NCBI GenBank assembly: GCA_030745655.1
Contig: JASLOE010000002.1
Location: 38,761 to 102,760, forward strand
Reading direction: 5' to 3'
Length of the DNA stretch: 64,000 bases
Source of the DNA: Nitrososphaerales archaeon
GTDB lineage: Archaea; Thermoproteota; Nitrososphaeria; Nitrososphaerales; JACPRH01
Below the pieces are notes generated by a model. It had not been told where the DNA came from, did not search any database, and saw only the letters and a list, made by a program, of their open reading frames with translations. This document shows positions 20,085 through 50,548 of the stretch, piece by piece. A program made the position numbers and the translations under genes. The stretch's first letter is position 1; each line of letters begins with the position of its first letter.

Positions 20085-21332
20085 GTGTTTGATTTGAAAT
20101 ATGAATGTCCTAAATGCAATAAACAATATGATGGGAATTACATAATGAAGAATAGATACTGTGAAGATTGTCAGATGCGACTTATCCAACGGAGAGAACA
20201 AGCACCAAGGTTGAAGGTTAAATTACGGAACAATAAAGACCTTGAAATAAGTATATTTGATGTTTGGTCTTTCTTTAAAGAGTTAGATAAGGCAAAACCA
20301 ATGTTTGGTTCAAGAGAATTTCTGGTTACGTGTGTAGTTGAAAATTCAGTTATTATTTTGCCAAAGGATGGACGTAAACGATCAATTGCTTATGCTGAAT
20401 TTCTTAGTGTTTGGTGTGAATATGTTAAGACTAGGTCTGAAAAAGCGGTTGATTATGTTAAGATATCCGGTAATACGCCATATATTTTGACTGTAATTAT
20501 TTTATTTCTTGAAAGTAAGTTGGCTAAAAAGTATCATGATAGTTTCAACCCATTAAAGGAAGCAAGTGAAGATAAGGGGAAAGGGGTTGTTTATCCAAAA
20601 ATTGTGGATGTTTTAGTTAAACGAGAAGGGGCTCTTCATTCTGAGAATGTTGAGTTTGATTCATTAACTGAAAATCGAGATTCAGAAATCTTGCTTGCTA
20701 ATCTCGAAAAGTATCCTCACGCTTTTGTTCTTGCGTCCATATTGCACCGAGAAGTAAGTGCTGCTGATGTTTGGGATATACCTTACAAGTTTATGGAGCG
20801 ACTTGGGTCTTTTGAGTTTCACGATATTCAAAAATTATCTTTAGAAGATGTGAAAAAACTTATGTCTAGTCCATCACCTCTTCATATACACCCAAATGCA
20901 ATGGCTAAATCTCTCTATCTTGGGGTTCAGCATATTCAGGAACGATATTCTGGAAAAACTTCAAAAATTTGGGCAGATATTCCAAGTAGTGTAACTATTG
21001 TTAATCGTTTTAGTCTTTTTTCTGGTGTAAACCATAAAAGTGCAGTTAAGGCTGCAGCAATTCTTGTCCGTAAATTCAAGATTCCGGTTAAAGATAAAAC
21101 TGCACTTGATATTTCTGTTAACAACAAGGTGAAGAGAGTTTTCACTAGACTAGGATTAATATCTAAACATACTTCAGATAATGAAATAATAGAAAAAGCT
21201 CAGGACCTCTATCCACCTTACCCTGGAGTATTTGAATCTCCAATCCAAGAAATCGGGAGAAAATGGTGCAAACCAGTCAATTCGGATTGTATCTCATGTT
21301 ATATGACAAAGTACTGTCCTAAAGTACTCTGA
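20085..21332 (+). CDS. endonuclease III-like (HhH-GPD superfamily) protein with Fe-S loop and N-terminal zinc ribbon
   Basis: The C-terminal C-x6-C-x2-C-x5-C (CKPVNSDCISCYMTKYC, 21267-21317) is the EndoIII/MutY 4Fe-4S spacing. An HhH-like KVKRVFTRLGLIS is present. The N-terminal ribbon is CPKC...CEDC. Confidence 0.6.
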   Translation: MFDLKYECPKCNKQYDGNYIMKNRYCEDCQMRLIQRREQAPRLKVKLRNNKDLEISIFDVWSFFKELDKAKPMFGSREFLVTCVVENSVIILPKDGRKRSIAYAEFLSVWCEYVKTRSEKAVDYVKISGNTPYILTVIILFLESKLAKKYHDSFNPLKEASEDKGKGVVYPKIVDVLVKREGALHSENVEFDSLTENRDSEILLANLEKYPHAFVLASILHREVSAADVWDIPYKFMERLGSFEFHDIQKLSLEDVKKLMSSPSPLHIHPNAMAKSLYLGVQHIQERYSGKTSKIWADIPSSVTIVNRFSLFSGVNHKSAVKAAAILVRKFKIPVKDKTALDISVNNKVKRVFTRLGLISKHTSDNEIIEKAQDLYPPYPGVFESPIQEIGRKWCKPVNSDCISCYMTKYCPKVL

Positions 21333-38480: not shown

Positions 38481-38573
38481 GCACGAAACACTATTTTGCT
38501 CCATTCATCAAGTGTCTTCAATTCTGTTTTTTTGTATAAACATATTATGTAGTTTTTGTTGTTGTTGGTTACT

Positions 38574-39968
38574 ATGAATGTTAAGTTGTTGGGTGGAGAT
38601 GGGGAGATTGGTGGAAACAAAATTCTTGTTGAGCATAAAGGCACTAGGATTTTTCTGGATTTCGGTATGAGTTTTAAGCAGGCTGGAAAGTTTTTTTCTG
38701 AGTATGTTCAGCCGCGTAAATGTTCATCTTTACAAGATTTTTTTGAGATGGGTTTGTTGCCTGAGTTGGATGGAGTTTACCGAGAAGATTATCTTAAACA
38801 TATGGGTAAACAAAAAGAGAAGAGAAGTATTGATGGTGTTTTCTTAAGTCATGCGCATGCAGACCATGCATGGTATATCCATTTTTTGAGGATTGATATA
38901 CCAATTTTTTGTAGTAAAACAACAAAGGTTATTCTTCAGGTGTTAGAGGAGACAGGTAGCGGCTCGATTTCTGACCTAGTTTCTGCTTGCGATACTTTCG
39001 TTTTTTATCGAAACAACAAAGGTGAATTAAAAAGGGCTTCCAGAAAAAAGAGTGAGTTTGTTCATGATCGAGATTTCACGATATTGGAGCCTGGAAAGAA
39101 AGTGTCTGTAGGGACTTTGGAGGTTGAGATGGTTCCTGTTGATCATTCATTGCCTGGTGCATGTGGGTACATTGTTTATTCTGATGAAGGGAACCTTGTT
39201 TATACTGGTGACATCCGGTTTCATGGTTCACATCAGAAGCTTAGTGAAGATTTTGTTGTGAAAGCAAAACAAGCAAAACCAAAAATTTTGATTTCTGAGG
39301 GGACAAGAATAGATACTGACAAGAAAGATAGTGAAGCAGGAGTTAAAGCAAAGATTTCTGATCTTATTTCTGATGCTGAGGGGTTGGTGTTTGTTGAACA
39401 TCCTGTGAGGGATTTGGATAGAATAAATACAATGTATGAGTCAGCGAAAGCTAATGGTAGGGAGTTTGTGGCTAATCTTAAGCTTGCTTATCTTGTTCAA
39501 AGTTTAGGGGATCTTTGTCCGTTTAAGTTAGATGATGTTAAGATTCTTGTTCCGAAGAAGAGTTGGGGTCTAATTGGTAAAGAAGATATTGATCCTGATC
39601 TTATTGAACAAGATTACAATAAATGGGAAAGAGACTTTATAGACAGAGACAACTCAATAATTTACAGTGAACTTAAAGAGAATCCCAGTAAATATGTTGT
39701 CTCTATGAGTATGTGGGAAATAAACCAGTTATCCGACATAAATCCAAAGAACGCTGTATGGATCAAATCATCATGTGAACCATTCGATGAAGAAATGAAG
39801 ATAGATGAAAAACGAAAAAAGAATTGGTTAAGACACTACAAAATCAAAGAATATTCTGCTCACGCATCAGGGCACGCATCAGGTGACAAAATAAGGGAAA
39901 TGATCAAGGAAATAAACCCTGAGAAGGTAATTCCCATCCACACAGAAAACCCTGAAATGTATAATTAA
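38574..39968 (+). CDS. metallo-beta-lactamase / beta-CASP family nuclease
   Basis: MBL motifs are FLDFG, SHAHADHAWY, PVDHSLPGA and YTGDIRF. Beta-CASP motifs are A (LISEGTR), B (HASGHAS) and C (IPIHTE). The track ORF starts at TTG 38556; ATG 38574 gives MNVKLLGGDGEIGGNKILVE. Confidence 0.75.
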   Translation: MNVKLLGGDGEIGGNKILVEHKGTRIFLDFGMSFKQAGKFFSEYVQPRKCSSLQDFFEMGLLPELDGVYREDYLKHMGKQKEKRSIDGVFLSHAHADHAWYIHFLRIDIPIFCSKTTKVILQVLEETGSGSISDLVSACDTFVFYRNNKGELKRASRKKSEFVHDRDFTILEPGKKVSVGTLEVEMVPVDHSLPGACGYIVYSDEGNLVYTGDIRFHGSHQKLSEDFVVKAKQAKPKILISEGTRIDTDKKDSEAGVKAKISDLISDAEGLVFVEHPVRDLDRINTMYESAKANGREFVANLKLAYLVQSLGDLCPFKLDDVKILVPKKSWGLIGKEDIDPDLIEQDYNKWERDFIDRDNSIIYSELKENPSKYVVSMSMWEINQLSDINPKNAVWIKSSCEPFDEEMKIDEKRKKNWLRHYKIKEYSAHASGHASGDKIREMIKEINPEKVIPIHTENPEMYN

Positions 39969-40130
39969 TTGTTTTTATTCATCTCGGTATTGGTTCAAGA
40001 ATATGATTATATCATACATTTGTATGATTAATGATTTAATATTGAAATTATTACGAATAACGGAATAAAATTTACTAATTCGTGATGTTATTATGCTGAA
40101 TGAAACATATTTATGTTATAATCATGCTAT

Positions 40131-40433
40131 ATGTTAAGAAATTCTTTGACTAATACTATTATTGTTAAGCGGAGGCCTTTGGAACATTATTTTTTATCTA
40201 TTTTCTCTCTTATTCTTAATGAAGAAAAAGAAATAATTCTTAAATCATATGGAAGTTCAATAGGAACAGCCATCGATATTGTTAATCTTCTGACTGGGAA
40301 AATCCTTCCAAATTTCTTCAATGTTACCTTAGAGTCCTCAATTAGCAATATTGATGTATTTGGAGGGAATCTTGATATGAACAAGTCGAGTAATAAAATA
40401 TCTGTTATTAAAATAATATTAAAAGTGAGATAA
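40131..40433 (+). CDS. divergent Alba-like nucleic-acid-binding protein
   Basis: 100 aa. The pattern NTIIVKRRPLEHY...EEKEIILKSYGSSIGTAIDIVNLL...ISVIKIILKV follows the Alba layout (K..P...Y ... e-i-l-k-G-..I..A-i-d-i-v). It is a divergent member. Confidence 0.5.
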   Translation: MLRNSLTNTIIVKRRPLEHYFLSIFSLILNEEKEIILKSYGSSIGTAIDIVNLLTGKILPNFFNVTLESSISNIDVFGGNLDMNKSSNKISVIKIILKVR

Positions 40434-41462
40434 ATGGAAATAATTGATATTTGTACACTTGAAACATTGCTTAGTGCAGTGCAAATAAGAAATAAAACTT
40501 TGAATCTTTTCACCACTATTGGCTCTGAAGATATACAACTTTGCTCAATAAATCTAGATGATAACGAACTCAAAGTTAATGAAGAACTCTTAATTACGGA
40601 AGTAAATGATAAGAGATCAAGACTTCTTTCAGATAGTAATTCTAGAATGGTTAACGCATTAATGAGGTCTGCTCTCTTGAAACCTAATTTAAATAAATTC
40701 AGATTGCAAATTTCTCAGTGGGATGATGTTATTTTTGGGTTAGACACAAATATATTTTATACATGTACAATTACTTCATCTATTCTTGATGATTTACTAA
40801 AAATTCCATCCGGTGATTTTATTGATACTCCTGATTGGATGACTTTTGTGTTTAGCAAGGTGGGTATGGGAGAGATAGAAAATAGGGCTGGTCATTCTCA
40901 TAATCCAACAAATAGAAGGCAATGTTTAAGGGCCATACAAGAAATTATGATGATAAATAGAAGCAAAGATTTGGAGGGAATCTCATTACTTCTTACAGGT
41001 TCAATCCCACCTGAAATTGATTATTCTACCAGTACAACTAATACAGTTAGAGACTCAACAATTAGGGAACAGTTTAGATCATTCCTAAAAACAATCGATT
41101 TTCATAAAGGAAGCTACTTTCTCACACAAGATTTCAATAGTGCAGTTTTAGCTGAAGCTGAAGGTTTGAAGAGTTTATACATCCAGAAACCTAATCTTCC
41201 AGAACAAGCTATAGATTTTCATACAAGTGACAAAGTTAATGTTTCTGAAGTACTTTACGAGTTGGCAGTATCTTTCCAACCACTTATTCTTAAAATGGAT
41301 GGTCTTGAACTTGAATTCTTTAGTGAATGGTCTGGAAAAAACCTCAATTCTTGGGAAAACTGGATGATGGGAATCAAATGGCGCAAAGACGATATAAAAC
41401 TTAATGAAGAAATCCAAAAACTAAAAAAACAAGAAATCAACCAAAAAATATGTGCCGGTTAG
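40434..41462 (+). CDS. PIN-domain nuclease-like protein with N- and C-terminal extensions
   Basis: The ATG directly follows the Alba-like stop (TAAATG). The four acidic positions are spaced as in PIN domains: FGLDTNIF (D104), GEIEN (E147), VRDSTI (D207) and LTQDFN (D233). Confidence 0.5.
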   Translation: MEIIDICTLETLLSAVQIRNKTLNLFTTIGSEDIQLCSINLDDNELKVNEELLITEVNDKRSRLLSDSNSRMVNALMRSALLKPNLNKFRLQISQWDDVIFGLDTNIFYTCTITSSILDDLLKIPSGDFIDTPDWMTFVFSKVGMGEIENRAGHSHNPTNRRQCLRAIQEIMMINRSKDLEGISLLLTGSIPPEIDYSTSTTNTVRDSTIREQFRSFLKTIDFHKGSYFLTQDFNSAVLAEAEGLKSLYIQKPNLPEQAIDFHTSDKVNVSEVLYELAVSFQPLILKMDGLELEFFSEWSGKNLNSWENWMMGIKWRKDDIKLNEEIQKLKKQEINQKICAG

Positions 41463-41637
41463 GATAACTTAAAGAAAAGACATGTACATTGGTTAGAAAA
41501 ATGACGCGAAATAAGTGGGAATTATTAAAAAAATATGTGATTGGAAAGCGTTGAAAGTTTCTTTAGATGCTGATATAATCCATGAATAAACTAGTGGTTC
41601 ATTTTAGGAATCTTCTCTTTTTGTGATTTGAAGGAAA

Positions 41638-42978
41638 ATGACAGTTTCCTTTGATGAATTGGAAAAAATTAAGCCTTTATTGAGAGAATATGTTGAGCAA
41701 AGTCCAAAGAGTGTTGAACGCCAATGGGAGTCTCCCATTGAGATTTCACAGCGTCCTTTTCATCGTTATGCTGGAAAGGAGAGCCAGAAGATTGCTCATT
41801 TTTTACTTATGTTTGCTGCAGTTGACACGGCAGAGCTTGTTACAATGCCTGAAAATGCAAGAGCCTTACTGAAGTACCTTTATGGTTCTTTAAGTGATGA
41901 CTATTTTAAACCGAGTCAAATTGACCTCTTCAGTAAGCATATTCAAGACTTTAGCAATCACTATAATCTAGGTTCATCATATGAGCAAATTCCGGAAATT
42001 CTTGATTCAATAAACCATTTTGTTCAAGAGAATGCGAAAGGAGACCTAGTCAGTTATGCAAAGAAGTTTGCTACACCTGAAGAAATGGTAAAAGAAGTTG
42101 GTAATAATATTCCATACATAGGAGGATCACGCCTTGATCATGTACGGATGTACATGCGATGGATGGTGCGGGCCCCTCCTGATCTTGAGATTTTCAAAAA
42201 CTTTTCAAGTAAACAACTGCAGATTCCACTTACATCATTTATGCGAAACATTGCAGTCTGTCTAGGTATATGCTCAAAAGCAATTGCTGATTGGGATCAC
42301 CCTCAGGAAATTGATCAAGAAAGAAAACGGCTAACACAGTTTGCATTAGAACTTTTTCCAGAAGACCCTGCAAAAATTGATTACCCATTCTTTATGTTAG
42401 GCAGATGGATTAGAGACCAAAACTTGAGTTTGCAATTCCTGAGAAACTGGCTTCAATTCCTAAAAAAAACATATGTCAAACTTCAAAGACCTCCAATCAC
42501 GTTCAATGCTTCCAAGATACGACAAGAATCTACTTTTGAAAAAAGAGTAAGAGAAGAACTTGAAAAATTTCAGTTCATGTTTTCATTTGAACCGCTCAAA
42601 TTCACTTTGTCAAATAAAAAGGGAGAACCGCAGAACTATACCCCTGACTTCATTCTACCTCGATGTCGAAAACAAAGAAAAATAGTCATATTAGAACCTC
42701 ACGGAATCTGGACACCTAAACAAAAAAGGAAGTTCCAATTAGGTAGTAAGACTTCCTACTTTTGGGCTTTTCCTTCAGAGATAAATATTGATGAGATAAA
42801 GTTTGTCAACAAACTTCGTTTATTTATGAAACTGTATAGTAAAATGTATTACTCAATTCTTATAGTCCCATCCGATGTAAAATACCGGGTTGAAAACTAT
42901 CCAAACATATGCAATGAAATATATGAAGGTGAAGACATACCAAAAATGCTTTTTGATTTACAGAAGAATATGAAATAA
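41638..42978 (+). CDS. fusion of a DUF2400 (TIGR02757)-like, HhH-glycosylase-related domain with a C-terminal PD-(D/E)XK-like domain
   Basis: The N-terminal ~270 aa reads RMYMRWMVRAPPDLEIFKNFSSKQLQIPLTSFMRNIAVCLGI...ADWDHP...LFPEDPAKIDYPFFMLGRW. This matches my recollection of the DUF2400 signature (FLRWMVR...PLDTHv...LgL...DP.KyDfaLf.lG). The C-terminal part has FEKRVREELE...YTPDFILP...IVILEPHGIW. Confidence 0.5.
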   Translation: MTVSFDELEKIKPLLREYVEQSPKSVERQWESPIEISQRPFHRYAGKESQKIAHFLLMFAAVDTAELVTMPENARALLKYLYGSLSDDYFKPSQIDLFSKHIQDFSNHYNLGSSYEQIPEILDSINHFVQENAKGDLVSYAKKFATPEEMVKEVGNNIPYIGGSRLDHVRMYMRWMVRAPPDLEIFKNFSSKQLQIPLTSFMRNIAVCLGICSKAIADWDHPQEIDQERKRLTQFALELFPEDPAKIDYPFFMLGRWIRDQNLSLQFLRNWLQFLKKTYVKLQRPPITFNASKIRQESTFEKRVREELEKFQFMFSFEPLKFTLSNKKGEPQNYTPDFILPRCRKQRKIVILEPHGIWTPKQKRKFQLGSKTSYFWAFPSEINIDEIKFVNKLRLFMKLYSKMYYSILIVPSDVKYRVENYPNICNEIYEGEDIPKMLFDLQKNMK

Positions 42979-44255: not shown

Positions 44256-44714
44256 TTGGTGATTATTTTTAGAGAATACGAAAAATACGAAAAGTTAGGA
44301 ATTTCAATAAATGAACTTATCTCAATAAATGAAATGTTGAAAATTCCTGAGAATAAAAATACTTCTAATGCGACAGAGAAACGGAAAAAATATGTTGAAG
44401 AGGCAATATCATGGAAATGCGGAAAAGACCAACAAAACAGAATAATCACGATTGTTTATGATATTGATGGACATGGAACAGCTGTTGCAGTGGGAAAGCC
44501 AGGCAAAGAAGCAGATAAAAATTATAAGGGATTTAGAAATTATAAAACAGGATTGAAAGGAAATAATCCTAATGATATGAATCCGCATATTTTACTCCAA
44601 CATTATAGTCTGGATCTGCAAAAATACAATCAAATTTCTCACCTTTTTTTATCAACTTGGGCATTACATCTAAAACATCTCCACAGATTACACCATCTAA
44701 CATTTCATCTCTGA
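44256..44714 (+). CDS. hypothetical ORF; only the first ~105 codons look protein-like
   Basis: The N-terminal part (EYEKYEKLGISINEL...IVYDIDGHGTAVAVGKPGKEADKNYKGF) has plausible composition. The 3' third is antisense to the methyltransferase fragment and is probably not coding. Confidence 0.25.
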   Translation: MVIIFREYEKYEKLGISINELISINEMLKIPENKNTSNATEKRKKYVEEAISWKCGKDQQNRIITIVYDIDGHGTAVAVGKPGKEADKNYKGFRNYKTGLKGNNPNDMNPHILLQHYSLDLQKYNQISHLFLSTWALHLKHLHRLHHLTFHL

Positions 44715-44766
44715 TTCTTTGAATATCTGTAGTTTTCGAACCTTGTTTTGACATGTTTATCAGCAA
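44569..44766 (-). pseudogene. N-terminal fragment of an N6/N4 DNA methyltransferase (truncated after motif IV)
   Basis: The 65-aa ORF contains ...DGVICGDVLDVMPKLIKKGEKFDCIFADPDYNVGVKY. This is the GD...l..lp...vDli.tDPPYN layout with DPPY changed to DPDY. A stop follows 9 codons later, and none of the three downstream frames continues a methylase. Confidence 0.55.
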
Positions 44767-49430: not shown

Positions 49431-49904
49431 GTGGAAAAATGGGAAATAGCCTTAGGTTCAACTCTAGCTGCTCTATATATTATTCTTGTAGTGGGACTAG
49501 GTCCACTTAGTTATCTCCAGATTCAGTTCCGTGCAGCCAACATACTTCTAGGTATAATTCCTATAGCAGGCCTTCCTGCAGTCTTCGGAATTACATTAGG
49601 TGTTTTAGTGGGTAACATATCGAGTCCACTTGGACCAATTGATATGCTAAGTGTAATTCCAACATTCTTCGGATGTTTAACAATATATTATTTGAGAAAA
49701 GTAAGTGTTTTAGCTGGACTTACAGTGTACACTGTAATAATATCACTTTGGGTTGCATTCATACTTCAATATGTACTGGGTCTTCCTTACTTGATCACTT
49801 TTCTCTATCTACTTATTGGAGTAGGTGTGGTAACAATAGGTTTAGGCTACATACTTTATAAAACACTCCTCAAATTTGGAGGCGAGAAACTATGGCATCG
49901 ATAG
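49431..49904 (+). CDS. queT: queuosine/archaeosine precursor transporter QueT-like membrane protein
   Basis: 157 aa with 5 TM helices. LQIQFRAANILLG...GNISSPLGPIDMLSVIPTF resembles the QueT (DUF988) pattern. It overlaps queC by 13 nt. Confidence 0.6.
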   Translation: MEKWEIALGSTLAALYIILVVGLGPLSYLQIQFRAANILLGIIPIAGLPAVFGITLGVLVGNISSPLGPIDMLSVIPTFFGCLTIYYLRKVSVLAGLTVYTVIISLWVAFILQYVLGLPYLITFLYLLIGVGVVTIGLGYILYKTLLKFGGEKLWHR

Positions 49905-50548
49905 AGAAAATTGTTTTAGTTTTATCTGGAGGAGCGGACAGTAGCACATTAGCATACTTGACCAAGTCTCAAGGACACGACATTTATCCAATCAGTTTCA
50001 ACTACGGTCAGATTGCAAGCAAAGAAACCAATAGTGCAGAAATAATCGCTAAAAATTTAGGGACAACAGCAAAAGTGATAGATGTATCCACTCTAAAACA
50101 GATATTTGGAGGGTCAACTGTCCTTATGGACAAAAGCATGGCTATGCCAGCCCAATTCGAAAGCAAAGTAATTGTCCCATTCAGAAATGCCATCTTTCTA
50201 TCAATAGCCGTAGCATACGCAATCACAATTGGAGCAAAAAAAATAATTTATGGTGCTCACAAATCTGATTCACCATTCTACCCAGACTGCAGAAAAGAGT
50301 TTGTTGATGCATTTCAGGACGCAGCAAAACTCGGAACAGATGAAGATATTACAATTGAGAACCCATTCTATAACTTCTCAAAGGCAGATATAATTCGAAA
50401 AGGTACGACTCTAAAAGTACCATATGAAATTACATGGAGTTGCTACTTAGAAGAAGAGCAGCACTGTGGAGCATGTGAATCGTGCAACAACAGAAAGAAT
50501 GCATTCAAAGAAGCGCAAATATCTGACCCAACTAAATATTCAACTTAA
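49892..50548 (+). CDS. queC: 7-cyano-7-deazaguanine (preQ0) synthase
   Basis: It has the PP-loop LVLSGGADSS and the C-terminal zinc site SCY...HCGACESCNNRKNAF. Confidence 0.9.
   Translation: MASIEKIVLVLSGGADSSTLAYLTKSQGHDIYPISFNYGQIASKETNSAEIIAKNLGTTAKVIDVSTLKQIFGGSTVLMDKSMAMPAQFESKVIVPFRNAIFLSIAVAYAITIGAKKIIYGAHKSDSPFYPDCRKEFVDAFQDAAKLGTDEDITIENPFYNFSKADIIRKGTTLKVPYEITWSCYLEEEQHCGACESCNNRKNAFKEAQISDPTKYST

Follow-up and report, generated by a model that had tools for sequence, protein, structure and literature searches.

A DUF2400 domain fused to a T7-endonuclease-I-like domain in archaea: a candidate one-protein endonuclease directed at non-canonical bases

END nucleases are bacterial proteins in which an inactive EndoIII/Ogg-like sensor (iEndoIII) is fused to a PLD, NucS-like PD-DExK or McrB domain. 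They restrict phages with hypermodified DNA, and the reader has been tested as the specificity determinant (PMC12191111; Yee et al., bioRxiv 2025). Helix-hairpin-helix (HhH) glycosylases are also reported to defend against 7-deazaguanine phages (bioRxiv 10.1101/2025.10.29.685425). In HhH glycosylases and in the queuosine-nucleotide glycosylase Qng1 (DUF2419) catalysis depends critically on an Asp that directly follows the HhH element, and Qng1 acts on a free nucleotide through this residue, Asp231, and Lys199 (PMC9881137). Here we describe a gene in a 64,000-nucleotide stretch (the window) of contig JASLOE010000002.1 from a Nitrososphaerales archaeon, whose genome is a 0.9-Mb, 89%-complete metagenome-assembled genome (MAG). 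The 446-residue product, P0001, joins a DUF2400 domain to a T7-endonuclease-I-like nuclease domain and may be an archaeal analogue of the END nucleases that draws on different sensor and nuclease families.

P0001 resembles the END nucleases in carrying an HhH glycosylase-like domain without the catalytic residue and a predicted DNA nuclease on one polypeptide. No methyltransferase gene adjoins its gene in the window, and its subfamily is often encoded among defence genes, but also close to repair genes. The components differ. The sensor of P0001 is DUF2400 (PF09674), with Qng1 as its nearest solved fold, whereas that of END is of the EndoIII/Ogg type (PF00730/PF21790); its nuclease is T7-endonuclease-I-like with a Glu-Pro-His (E-P-H) motif, whereas those of END are PLD or NucS-like; its sensor is N-terminal, whereas that of END-PaCF1 is C-terminal; and the hosts of its family are archaea rather than bacteria. 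Among the END nucleases, END-Mag (MDV2503288.1), which combines a NucS-like PD-DExK domain with iEndoIII, comes closest to P0001 as judged from its published description. Viewed against the intact nuclease site used as a criterion for END, P0001 conserves E301, D337 and E353 and has His355 in place of the motif Lys.

A preliminary description of this DNA, made from its letters and translations, had suggested a modification-dependent or lesion-specific endonuclease. The END nucleases (PMC12191111) supply a published precedent for that suggestion, while the function itself we still infer. The same description knew of no characterised protein with this fusion. We likewise found no description in the literature of a DUF2400 domain paired with an endonuclease-I-like domain, nor any functional description of DUF2400 or TIGR02757, but the general design is now known from END.

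The two domains of P0001

The open reading frame (ORF) of P0001 is uninterrupted, and the reverse strand over the same interval is packed with stop codons. Its features are as follows.

41638..42978, forward strand: the whole gene for the 446-residue DUF2400/endonuclease-I-like nuclease fusion P0001, with an ATG start and the stop codon included.
41638..42483, forward strand: residues 1–282, the DUF2400 domain, with a predicted HhH-superfamily glycosylase fold and presumed to be the base reader (Pfam, Foldseek, VIA, ESM Atlas).
42232..42234, forward strand: codon of Thr199, at the place of the HhH glycosylase catalytic Asp (alignments, hhalign).
42484..42975, forward strand: residues 283–446, the predicted PD-(D/E)XK nuclease domain, T7-endonuclease-I-like (profile match, domain model, VIA).
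42538..42540, forward strand: Glu301 of the S-x-x-E motif, which pairs with the first acidic residue of T7 endonuclease I; at least 90% conserved in alignments A1, A3 and A4.
42646..42648, forward strand: Asp337 of YTPDF, the PD of PD-(D/E)XK; without variation in A1 and A3, and with conservation of 90% or more in A4.
42694..42702, forward strand: Glu353-Pro354-His355, the (D/E)-x-K motif with His for Lys, aligned to E-T-K of T7 endonuclease I.

The spacers around the gene, of 175 and 227 bp, are AT-rich. Marine and other metagenomes contain an identical protein, on 15 contigs, and its NCBI name is 'DUF2400 family protein' and nothing further. More than 300 homologues, falling into two subfamilies, keep the same two-domain architecture, indicating that the gene is conserved and not a chance ORF. 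The AlphaFold2 model, built from 27 homologues, has a mean predicted local distance difference test score (pLDDT) of 85.8. The motifs picked out by the preliminary description, MRWMVR, IPLTSF (42223-42240), DWDHP and FPEDPAKIDYPFFMLGRW, are all present, and its proposed fusion of a DUF2400-like with a restriction-endonuclease-like domain is borne out by Pfam, by the fold searches and by a profile match to T7 endonuclease I.

Pfam places DUF2400 (PF09674) on residues 111–255 (55.4 bits, E = 1.2e-14, profile positions 80–223; 56.3 bits in a genome-wide search with PF09674), above the gathering cut-off of 25 bits. TIGR02757 scores 52.9 bits, under its curated equivalog cut-off of 139.2 bits; by these scores P0001 is related to that equivalog and is not a member of it. 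When the P0001 model was compared with the PDB by Foldseek, the best match was Qng1 (E = 1e-4, probability 1.00), followed by Ogg, EndoIII, MutY/MUTYH, NTHL1, AGOG and MagIII. The VIA structural search returned Qng1 at Z = 13.2 (234 residues aligned, root-mean-square deviation 4.1), EndoIII at 11.5 and 11.0, Ogg at 11.4 and MutY at 9.1–9.4, with 190–236 aligned residues across all matches; the range of Z from 9 to 11.5 covers EndoIII, Ogg, NTHL1, MutY and AGOG. A shape search of the ESM Atlas gave the DUF2400 cluster first and the Endonuclease III cluster next. These Foldseek, VIA and ESM Atlas matches lead us to assign residues 1–282 of the model an HhH-superfamily glycosylase fold, in agreement with the statement in the preliminary description that DUF2400 is related to DNA glycosylases.

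The N-terminal domain shares the HhH-glycosylase architecture with Qng1 (PDB 7u07 among others; PMC9881137), its best structural match, but the sequence identity is 8–12%, and P0001 has Thr at the Asp position and a DNA nuclease that Qng1 does not. With EndoIII, MutY and Ogg it shares the fold; unlike them it gives no PF00730 match in the Pfam search and has neither the catalytic Asp, a recognisable GhG hairpin or Lys, nor an iron–sulfur (Fe–S) cluster. A segment RxxPDL(x)I(F/W) sits where the HhH hairpin is expected and is left unaligned by both hhalign runs; no conserved Lys was seen at this place in alignments of the fused family. A word-index search with residues 100–285 for short stand-alone relatives returned nothing.

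To set the catalytic position in the context of the family, Asp-type DUF2400 proteins were gathered from phage records and from a Pfam search of genomes. The set comprises a Phocaeicola phage TIGR02757 protein (P0122; IPLDAH), a 269-residue archaeal stand-alone protein (in L015; LPLDRN) and a second archaeal fusion family (L011, L013 and L014; SLDLG/SLDKG). One column of the joint alignment has Asp in the stand-alone, phage and Fe–S-type DUF2400 proteins, and Thr199 in P0001 and all endonuclease-I-fused relatives. By pattern count, Thr occupies position 199 in 118/118 database homologues and 76/76 genome loci. Canonical DUF2400/TIGR02757 proteins, from bacteria, Bacteroides phages and archaea, are single-domain proteins of about 230–270 residues with a Pro-Leu-Asp motif, whereas P0001 reads Pro-Leu-Thr and has the added nuclease domain; all family-invariant residues except this one are kept. 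W175, R178, P181, D182, W219, P241, D243, P244 and D248 are invariant even when canonical DUF2400 proteins are included.

The DUF2400 Asp can be related to that of EndoIII by profile alignment. Using hhalign, the Asp-type DUF2400 profile was compared with a profile built from EndoIII proteins of this archaeon's relatives, which placed the DUF2400 Asp on the catalytic Asp of PVDTH (probability 61%, E = 8e-5) and the Cys cluster of the second archaeal fusion family on the EndoIII Fe–S cluster. Direct alignment of the P0001 family to EndoIII gives the same register at a probability of 0.5%, which is not significant, and the mapping is usable solely through the Asp-retaining DUF2400 proteins that have the Cys cluster. 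The preliminary description had remarked that a PLDTH-like position reads PLTSF in P0001, and the change falls on the residue aligned with the EndoIII catalytic Asp. Loss of this Asp with retention of the invariant residues looks like the signature of a domain whose chemistry has been lost and whose binding pocket has been kept, a pattern that does not of itself prove inactivity.

The second archaeal fusion family consists of proteins of 412–463 residues (L011:1072-2307, reverse strand; L013:353-1657, forward strand; L014:189-1577, reverse strand) that keep the Asp (SLD) and carry the cluster, C-x8-C-x2-C-x5-C, that aligns with that of EndoIII. Their C terminus is unlike that of P0001 and reads D...E-V-E...IGQxxxY, reminiscent of NucS/RecB-type PD-(D/E)XK enzymes; judged from these motifs, the family would be an independent glycosylase–nuclease fusion. 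Canonical Asp-type TIGR02757/DUF2400 genes are found in Bacteroides phages of ~71–74 kb (the LoVEphage group), at L010:5965-6675 in Phocaeicola phage PV4-TP1 and in six other Bacteroides or Phocaeicola records. They sit among DNA methyltransferase, radical-SAM and PAPS-reductase-like genes, a setting that suggests that in phages the family has to do with DNA modification.

The C-terminal domain of P0001 contains the motifs S-T-F-E301, Y-T-P-D337-F and I-L-E353-P-H355-G. Chains of T7 endonuclease I are the sole solved-structure match of the family profile in the PDB (E = 8e-4 to 3e-3), and the register pairs S-x-x-E301 with S-x-x-E, YTPD337F with YTPDF and E353-P-H355-G with E-T-K-G of the T7 enzyme (PF05367; PDB 1m0d, 2pfj), the last pair having the common form E-x-(K/H)-G. 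The Pfam family Phage_endo_I (PF05367) itself scores 17.1–19 bits (E = 1e-3 to 4e-3), under the gathering cut-off of 29.1 bits. P0001 differs from T7 endonuclease I in having His for the catalytic Lys, in the extra β-hairpin of its subfamily and in being fused to a reader, the T7 enzyme being a free-standing swapped dimer.

The isolated model of the nuclease domain (pLDDT 88.4) is matched by VIA to Can2 (Z = 8.7–8.9), Bax1 (8.5–8.7), VC1899 (8.3), PspGI (8.1), I-Bth0305I (8.0–8.1) and Vsr (7.8), with Hjc, XisH and several restriction enzymes scoring lower. Matches at these Z values are moderate, with CheY-like folds close behind at 6–7.5, so that part of the PD-(D/E)XK assignment is carried by the sequence motif. 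Foldseek with the isolated domain gave no match at E ≤ 1e-3. T7 endonuclease I is absent from the structural match lists of the domain, so that the endonuclease-I link rests on the sequence profiles. The model is predicted to contain an αβββαβ PD-(D/E)XK core whose second and third strands carry the acidic residues. The PD-(D/E)XK character that the preliminary description had ascribed to the C terminus thus finds agreement in the fold matches at Z = 7.8–8.9 and in the T7-endonuclease-I-like motif set.

The E-P-H reading is present in 117/118 database homologues and, among the 76 genome loci that showed the pattern, in 75. A profile search run exhaustively over 1.8 billion representatives identified 220 proteins with the nuclease domain, made up of the fused archaeal proteins and stand-alone proteins of 120–310 residues. 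Among 57 domain relatives, each of the E, PDF, E and His elements shows conservation of 90% or more, and 12 of the 57 match Phage_endo_I. This conservation of the His, which extends to the stand-alone relatives, indicates that E-P-H is a trait of the family and not a lesion of the copy in the window. A precedent for a PD-(D/E)XK enzyme that uses His is BsoBI, as read from the title of its entry among the structural matches.

Distribution and gene neighbourhoods

Members of the ~440-residue subfamily are 45–97% identical to P0001 and have the extra β-hairpin (about residues 362–377) in the nuclease domain, and members of the ~416-residue sister subfamily are ~35% identical to P0001; one MAG holds both (L052, L128). 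The fusion family is archaeal and mostly from Bathyarchaeia, which account for nearly all of the 122 loci in species-representative genomes. Sampling of the phylum found DUF2400 in 15 of 301 genomes, mostly in two families (10/16 and 3/4). The distribution in the window's own order is patchy and marks the gene as accessory: it occurs in 3 of 61 genomes, namely the window's own, a congener in which it is cut by a contig end, and a third with a 3' remnant. It was not found in the other 58, of which 41 are at least 90% complete. The remnant (L009; G004:C133:2361-2618), in a genome of the same family, corresponds to residues 361–445, with 60% amino-acid identity and 2 in-frame TGA codons, and is evidence that the gene has decayed or is being lost. 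Each of the 26 genomes searched, that of the window among them, has an ordinary EndoIII-type HhH-GPD gene.

Immediately downstream of the 416-residue subfamily lies a gene for a ~119-residue HExxH protein (HEFYHH; L058:11276-11632, forward strand), for which there is a weak Peptidase_M78/ImmA-like lead, and beyond it a convergent Prok-JAB gene (L058:11632-12141, reverse strand). This arrangement is seen in 54–55 of 81 loci. At L003 there is a 4-bp overlap between the end of the fusion gene and the gene called downstream of it. The HExxH and Prok-JAB genes are not present in the window.

Upstream of P0001 the window encodes a fusion of a UvrD-type helicase with a Cas4-like nuclease, a 221-residue protein, a beta-CASP nuclease, Alba and a 342-residue protein, and the downstream neighbour is an Mrr_cat protein. 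No methyltransferase gene is adjacent to the P0001 gene in the window. PADLOC applied to the neighbours returned solely generic UvrD/GajB-type models on the helicase. The beta-CASP nuclease recurs elsewhere.

38556..39968, forward strand: beta-CASP metallo-β-lactamase nuclease (Pfam Lactamase_B_2 and RMMBL), recurrent neighbour of the fusion.
L001:2973-4439, L133:5726-7120, L134:10160-11743 and L136:1191-2585: beta-CASP orthologues, forming one orthogroup across Bathyarchaeia and Nitrososphaeria-type genomes.

We inspected 12 loci of the 440-residue subfamily. Orthologues of the beta-CASP nuclease (40–68% identity) lie within 3.5 kb of the fusion in 6 of them, being 0.1–3.5 kb away in L001, L133, L134 and L136, while in the congener G001 the two genes adjoin. 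The beta-CASP nuclease is a possible partner of the fusion. The orthologue also occurs without the fusion, in 5/5 and 5/5 members of families f4 and f7 as against 0/5 and 0/5 for the fusion. A HAD hydrolase is divergently adjacent in 4 loci, with 61–72% identity in the three compared. The idea of a fixed multi-gene defence system finds no support: no neighbour is present in all loci, and the beta-CASP orthologue is found without the fusion.

Defence or mobile genes are near 8 of the 12 loci, and repair genes are near too. One locus has GmrSD, Mrr with NA-iREase1, and HEPN; others have TIR with Cas1 fragments and an integrase, an XcyI restriction–modification (R–M) system with HNH and DUF4365, OLD with HD and a BsuBI R–M system, or a BglII-like gene with an integrase. 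Integrases occur in four loci in all.

The Alba-like gene and the abutting 342-residue gene (39957-41564) form a 1.6-kb indel directly upstream of the fusion that is absent in the congener G001, where ~26 bp of the alignment separate the beta-CASP and DUF2400-fusion genes. The block has the look of a two-gene cassette that was inserted, and the indel attests to local plasticity. The 'dead methyltransferase' that the preliminary description had put next door to the fusion gene in fact lies 1.6 kb off, beyond another gene. It is a 65-residue ORF (44569-44766, reverse strand) with weak Pfam matches that are not to DNA methyltransferases (Cons_hypoth95, E = 0.008; Methyltransf_3, E = 0.07), and we do not treat it as evidence. 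Further downstream, at 6.5 kb, are queT (a QueT transporter) and queC (49431-50548, forward strand), genes of 7-deazaguanine precursor metabolism. We regard their proximity to a gene with a Qng1-like fold as probably coincidental given the distance, their place in ordinary tRNA-archaeosine/queuosine precursor metabolism and the fact that they were not seen at other loci. Some 20 kb upstream, a 415-residue ORF (20085-21332, forward strand) has a sub-threshold HhH-GPD match (E = 3.7e-4, residues 217–378) and is a second divergent glycosylase-like protein; the congener has the same weak match.

Proposed function and alternatives

We favour the view that P0001 is a one-protein endonuclease directed at non-canonical bases, with Type-IV-like defence as its likeliest role (probability about 0.5). 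What speaks for it is the combination of a reader that has lost its catalytic residue, an apparently competent nuclease, no adjacent methyltransferase and an accessory distribution. The DUF2400 domain would probably bind DNA and flip out or dock the unusual base without excising it, as the retention of the invariant residues and the change of the catalytic Asp to an invariant Thr suggest. The T7-endonuclease-I-like domain, in which the putative metal-binding triad of E301, D337 and E353 is kept, would then cleave the backbone by hydrolysis close to the base that the reader recognises. In the cell this activity would most likely serve methyltransferase-independent, Type-IV-like restriction of viral DNA with modified bases. 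As to the target base, the closest solved fold to the model, that of a 7-deazaguanine (queuosine) nucleotide glycosylase, offers a lead at most.

Several observations weigh against this assignment. No PADLOC model matches P0001. Repair functions are represented among the neighbours, by the beta-CASP nuclease and UvrD–Cas4-like protein in the window, by NucS-like proteins, and by Mre11-Rad50-HerA-NurA in two loci. The 416-residue subfamily, which is present in 10/16 genomes of one Bathyarchaeia family and has the stable synteny described above (54–55/81 loci), looks more like a housekeeping than a defence gene in its pattern. The placement of Thr199 at the catalytic-Asp position draws on sequence and profile alignments and on its position in the secondary structure. 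The missing Asp is no proof that glycosylase activity is gone, TAG being an HhH-superfamily glycosylase without a catalytic Asp. Finally, the change of Lys to His in the nuclease motif could also mean that nuclease activity is altered or lost.

The same neighbourhoods could belong to a housekeeping repair enzyme, in which the disabled glycosylase domain would find a base of the cell's own DNA that has been damaged by oxidation, alkylation or deamination and the nuclease would nick beside it. Such a pathway would resemble alternative excision repair by Endo V, EndoQ, NucS/EndoMS or UVDE, with resection by the beta-CASP nuclease and/or the UvrD-type helicase–nuclease. It would account for the recurrence of the beta-CASP orthologue in the window, G001, L001, L133, L134 and L136, for the UvrD and Cas4-like nuclease near P0001, for the divergently adjacent HAD hydrolase in four loci, and for the NucS_C proteins and Mre11/Rad50/HerA/NurA close to the gene in some loci. 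It would also fit the common, syntenic 416-residue subfamily of Bathyarchaeia and the appearance of Vsr, a mismatch-specific repair nickase, among the structural neighbours of the nuclease domain. Against it stand the failure to find the gene in 58 of the 61 genomes of the order, 41 of the 58 being at least 90% complete, the ordinary EndoIII-type gene in all 26 genomes searched, and the many loci flanked by R–M, OLD, GmrSD, TIR and integrase genes; its presumed partner is moreover independent of the fusion, because the beta-CASP nuclease is present in the fusion-less families f4 and f7. On this evidence we consider a repair role rather unlikely, and defence more likely than repair. A bolder combination, which we hold to be improbable, is that the fusion, the beta-CASP nuclease and, in other genomes, the HAD phosphatase constitute a conserved archaeal incision–resection module in which the dead DUF2400 domain would read a specific non-canonical purine, for example of the 7-deazaguanine type, to which the Qng1-like fold points.

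The remaining alternatives concern the activities of the domains themselves. The DUF2400 domain might still excise a labile (for example cationic alkylated) base, either Asp-free in the manner of TAG or by means of D182, D243 or D248, with the nuclease processing the abasic site. Several acidic residues do remain invariant in the domain, and the Asp-retaining family of L011, L013 and L014 pairs an active-looking DUF2400 domain with a nuclease-like C terminus. But D182, D243 and D248 are equally invariant in Asp-type DUF2400 proteins, which marks them as family-wide structural or binding residues and not compensatory ones, and Thr has replaced the Asp without exception in the endonuclease-I-fused clade and nowhere else, as expected of lost chemistry and kept binding; an active bifunctional base-excision enzyme is for these reasons quite improbable. 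More doubtful again is a structure-specific nuclease (a junction or flap resolvase) of a mobile or virus-derived module, with the helical domain serving for non-specific DNA binding or oligomerisation. That proposal takes its cue from T7 endonuclease I, a Holliday-junction resolvase, as the one protein in the PDB to which the nuclease domain is related by sequence, from Hjc resolvases among the weaker fold matches and from the integrases in four loci. However, the conservation of the DUF2400-invariant pocket residues over hundreds of sequences argues for recognition of a specific ligand, no consistent set of mobile-element genes accompanies the fusion, and its chromosomal position is stable in Bathyarchaeia.

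Meaning for DUF2400 and for archaeal viruses

DUF2400/TIGR02757, a family without a published function, gains a testable placement among the HhH-superfamily glycosylases, its conserved Asp being the counterpart of the catalytic Asp of EndoIII. The family also provides a natural experiment, with Asp kept in the stand-alone, phage and Fe–S-type proteins and Thr in every endonuclease-I-fused member. Should the incision–resection module prove true, DUF2400 would be a previously unrecognised glycosylase or reader family for such bases in bacteria, phages and archaea.

If P0001 is a base-directed endonuclease as we propose, the principle of a dead glycosylase as sensor, known from END, would extend to archaea and to other sensor and nuclease families, which suggests that this design arose repeatedly. 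To our knowledge the DNA modifications of the viruses of Bathyarchaeia and Nitrososphaeria are largely uncharacterised. Once its target base is identified, the enzyme could report on these modifications, and it might also serve as a modification-dependent restriction tool.

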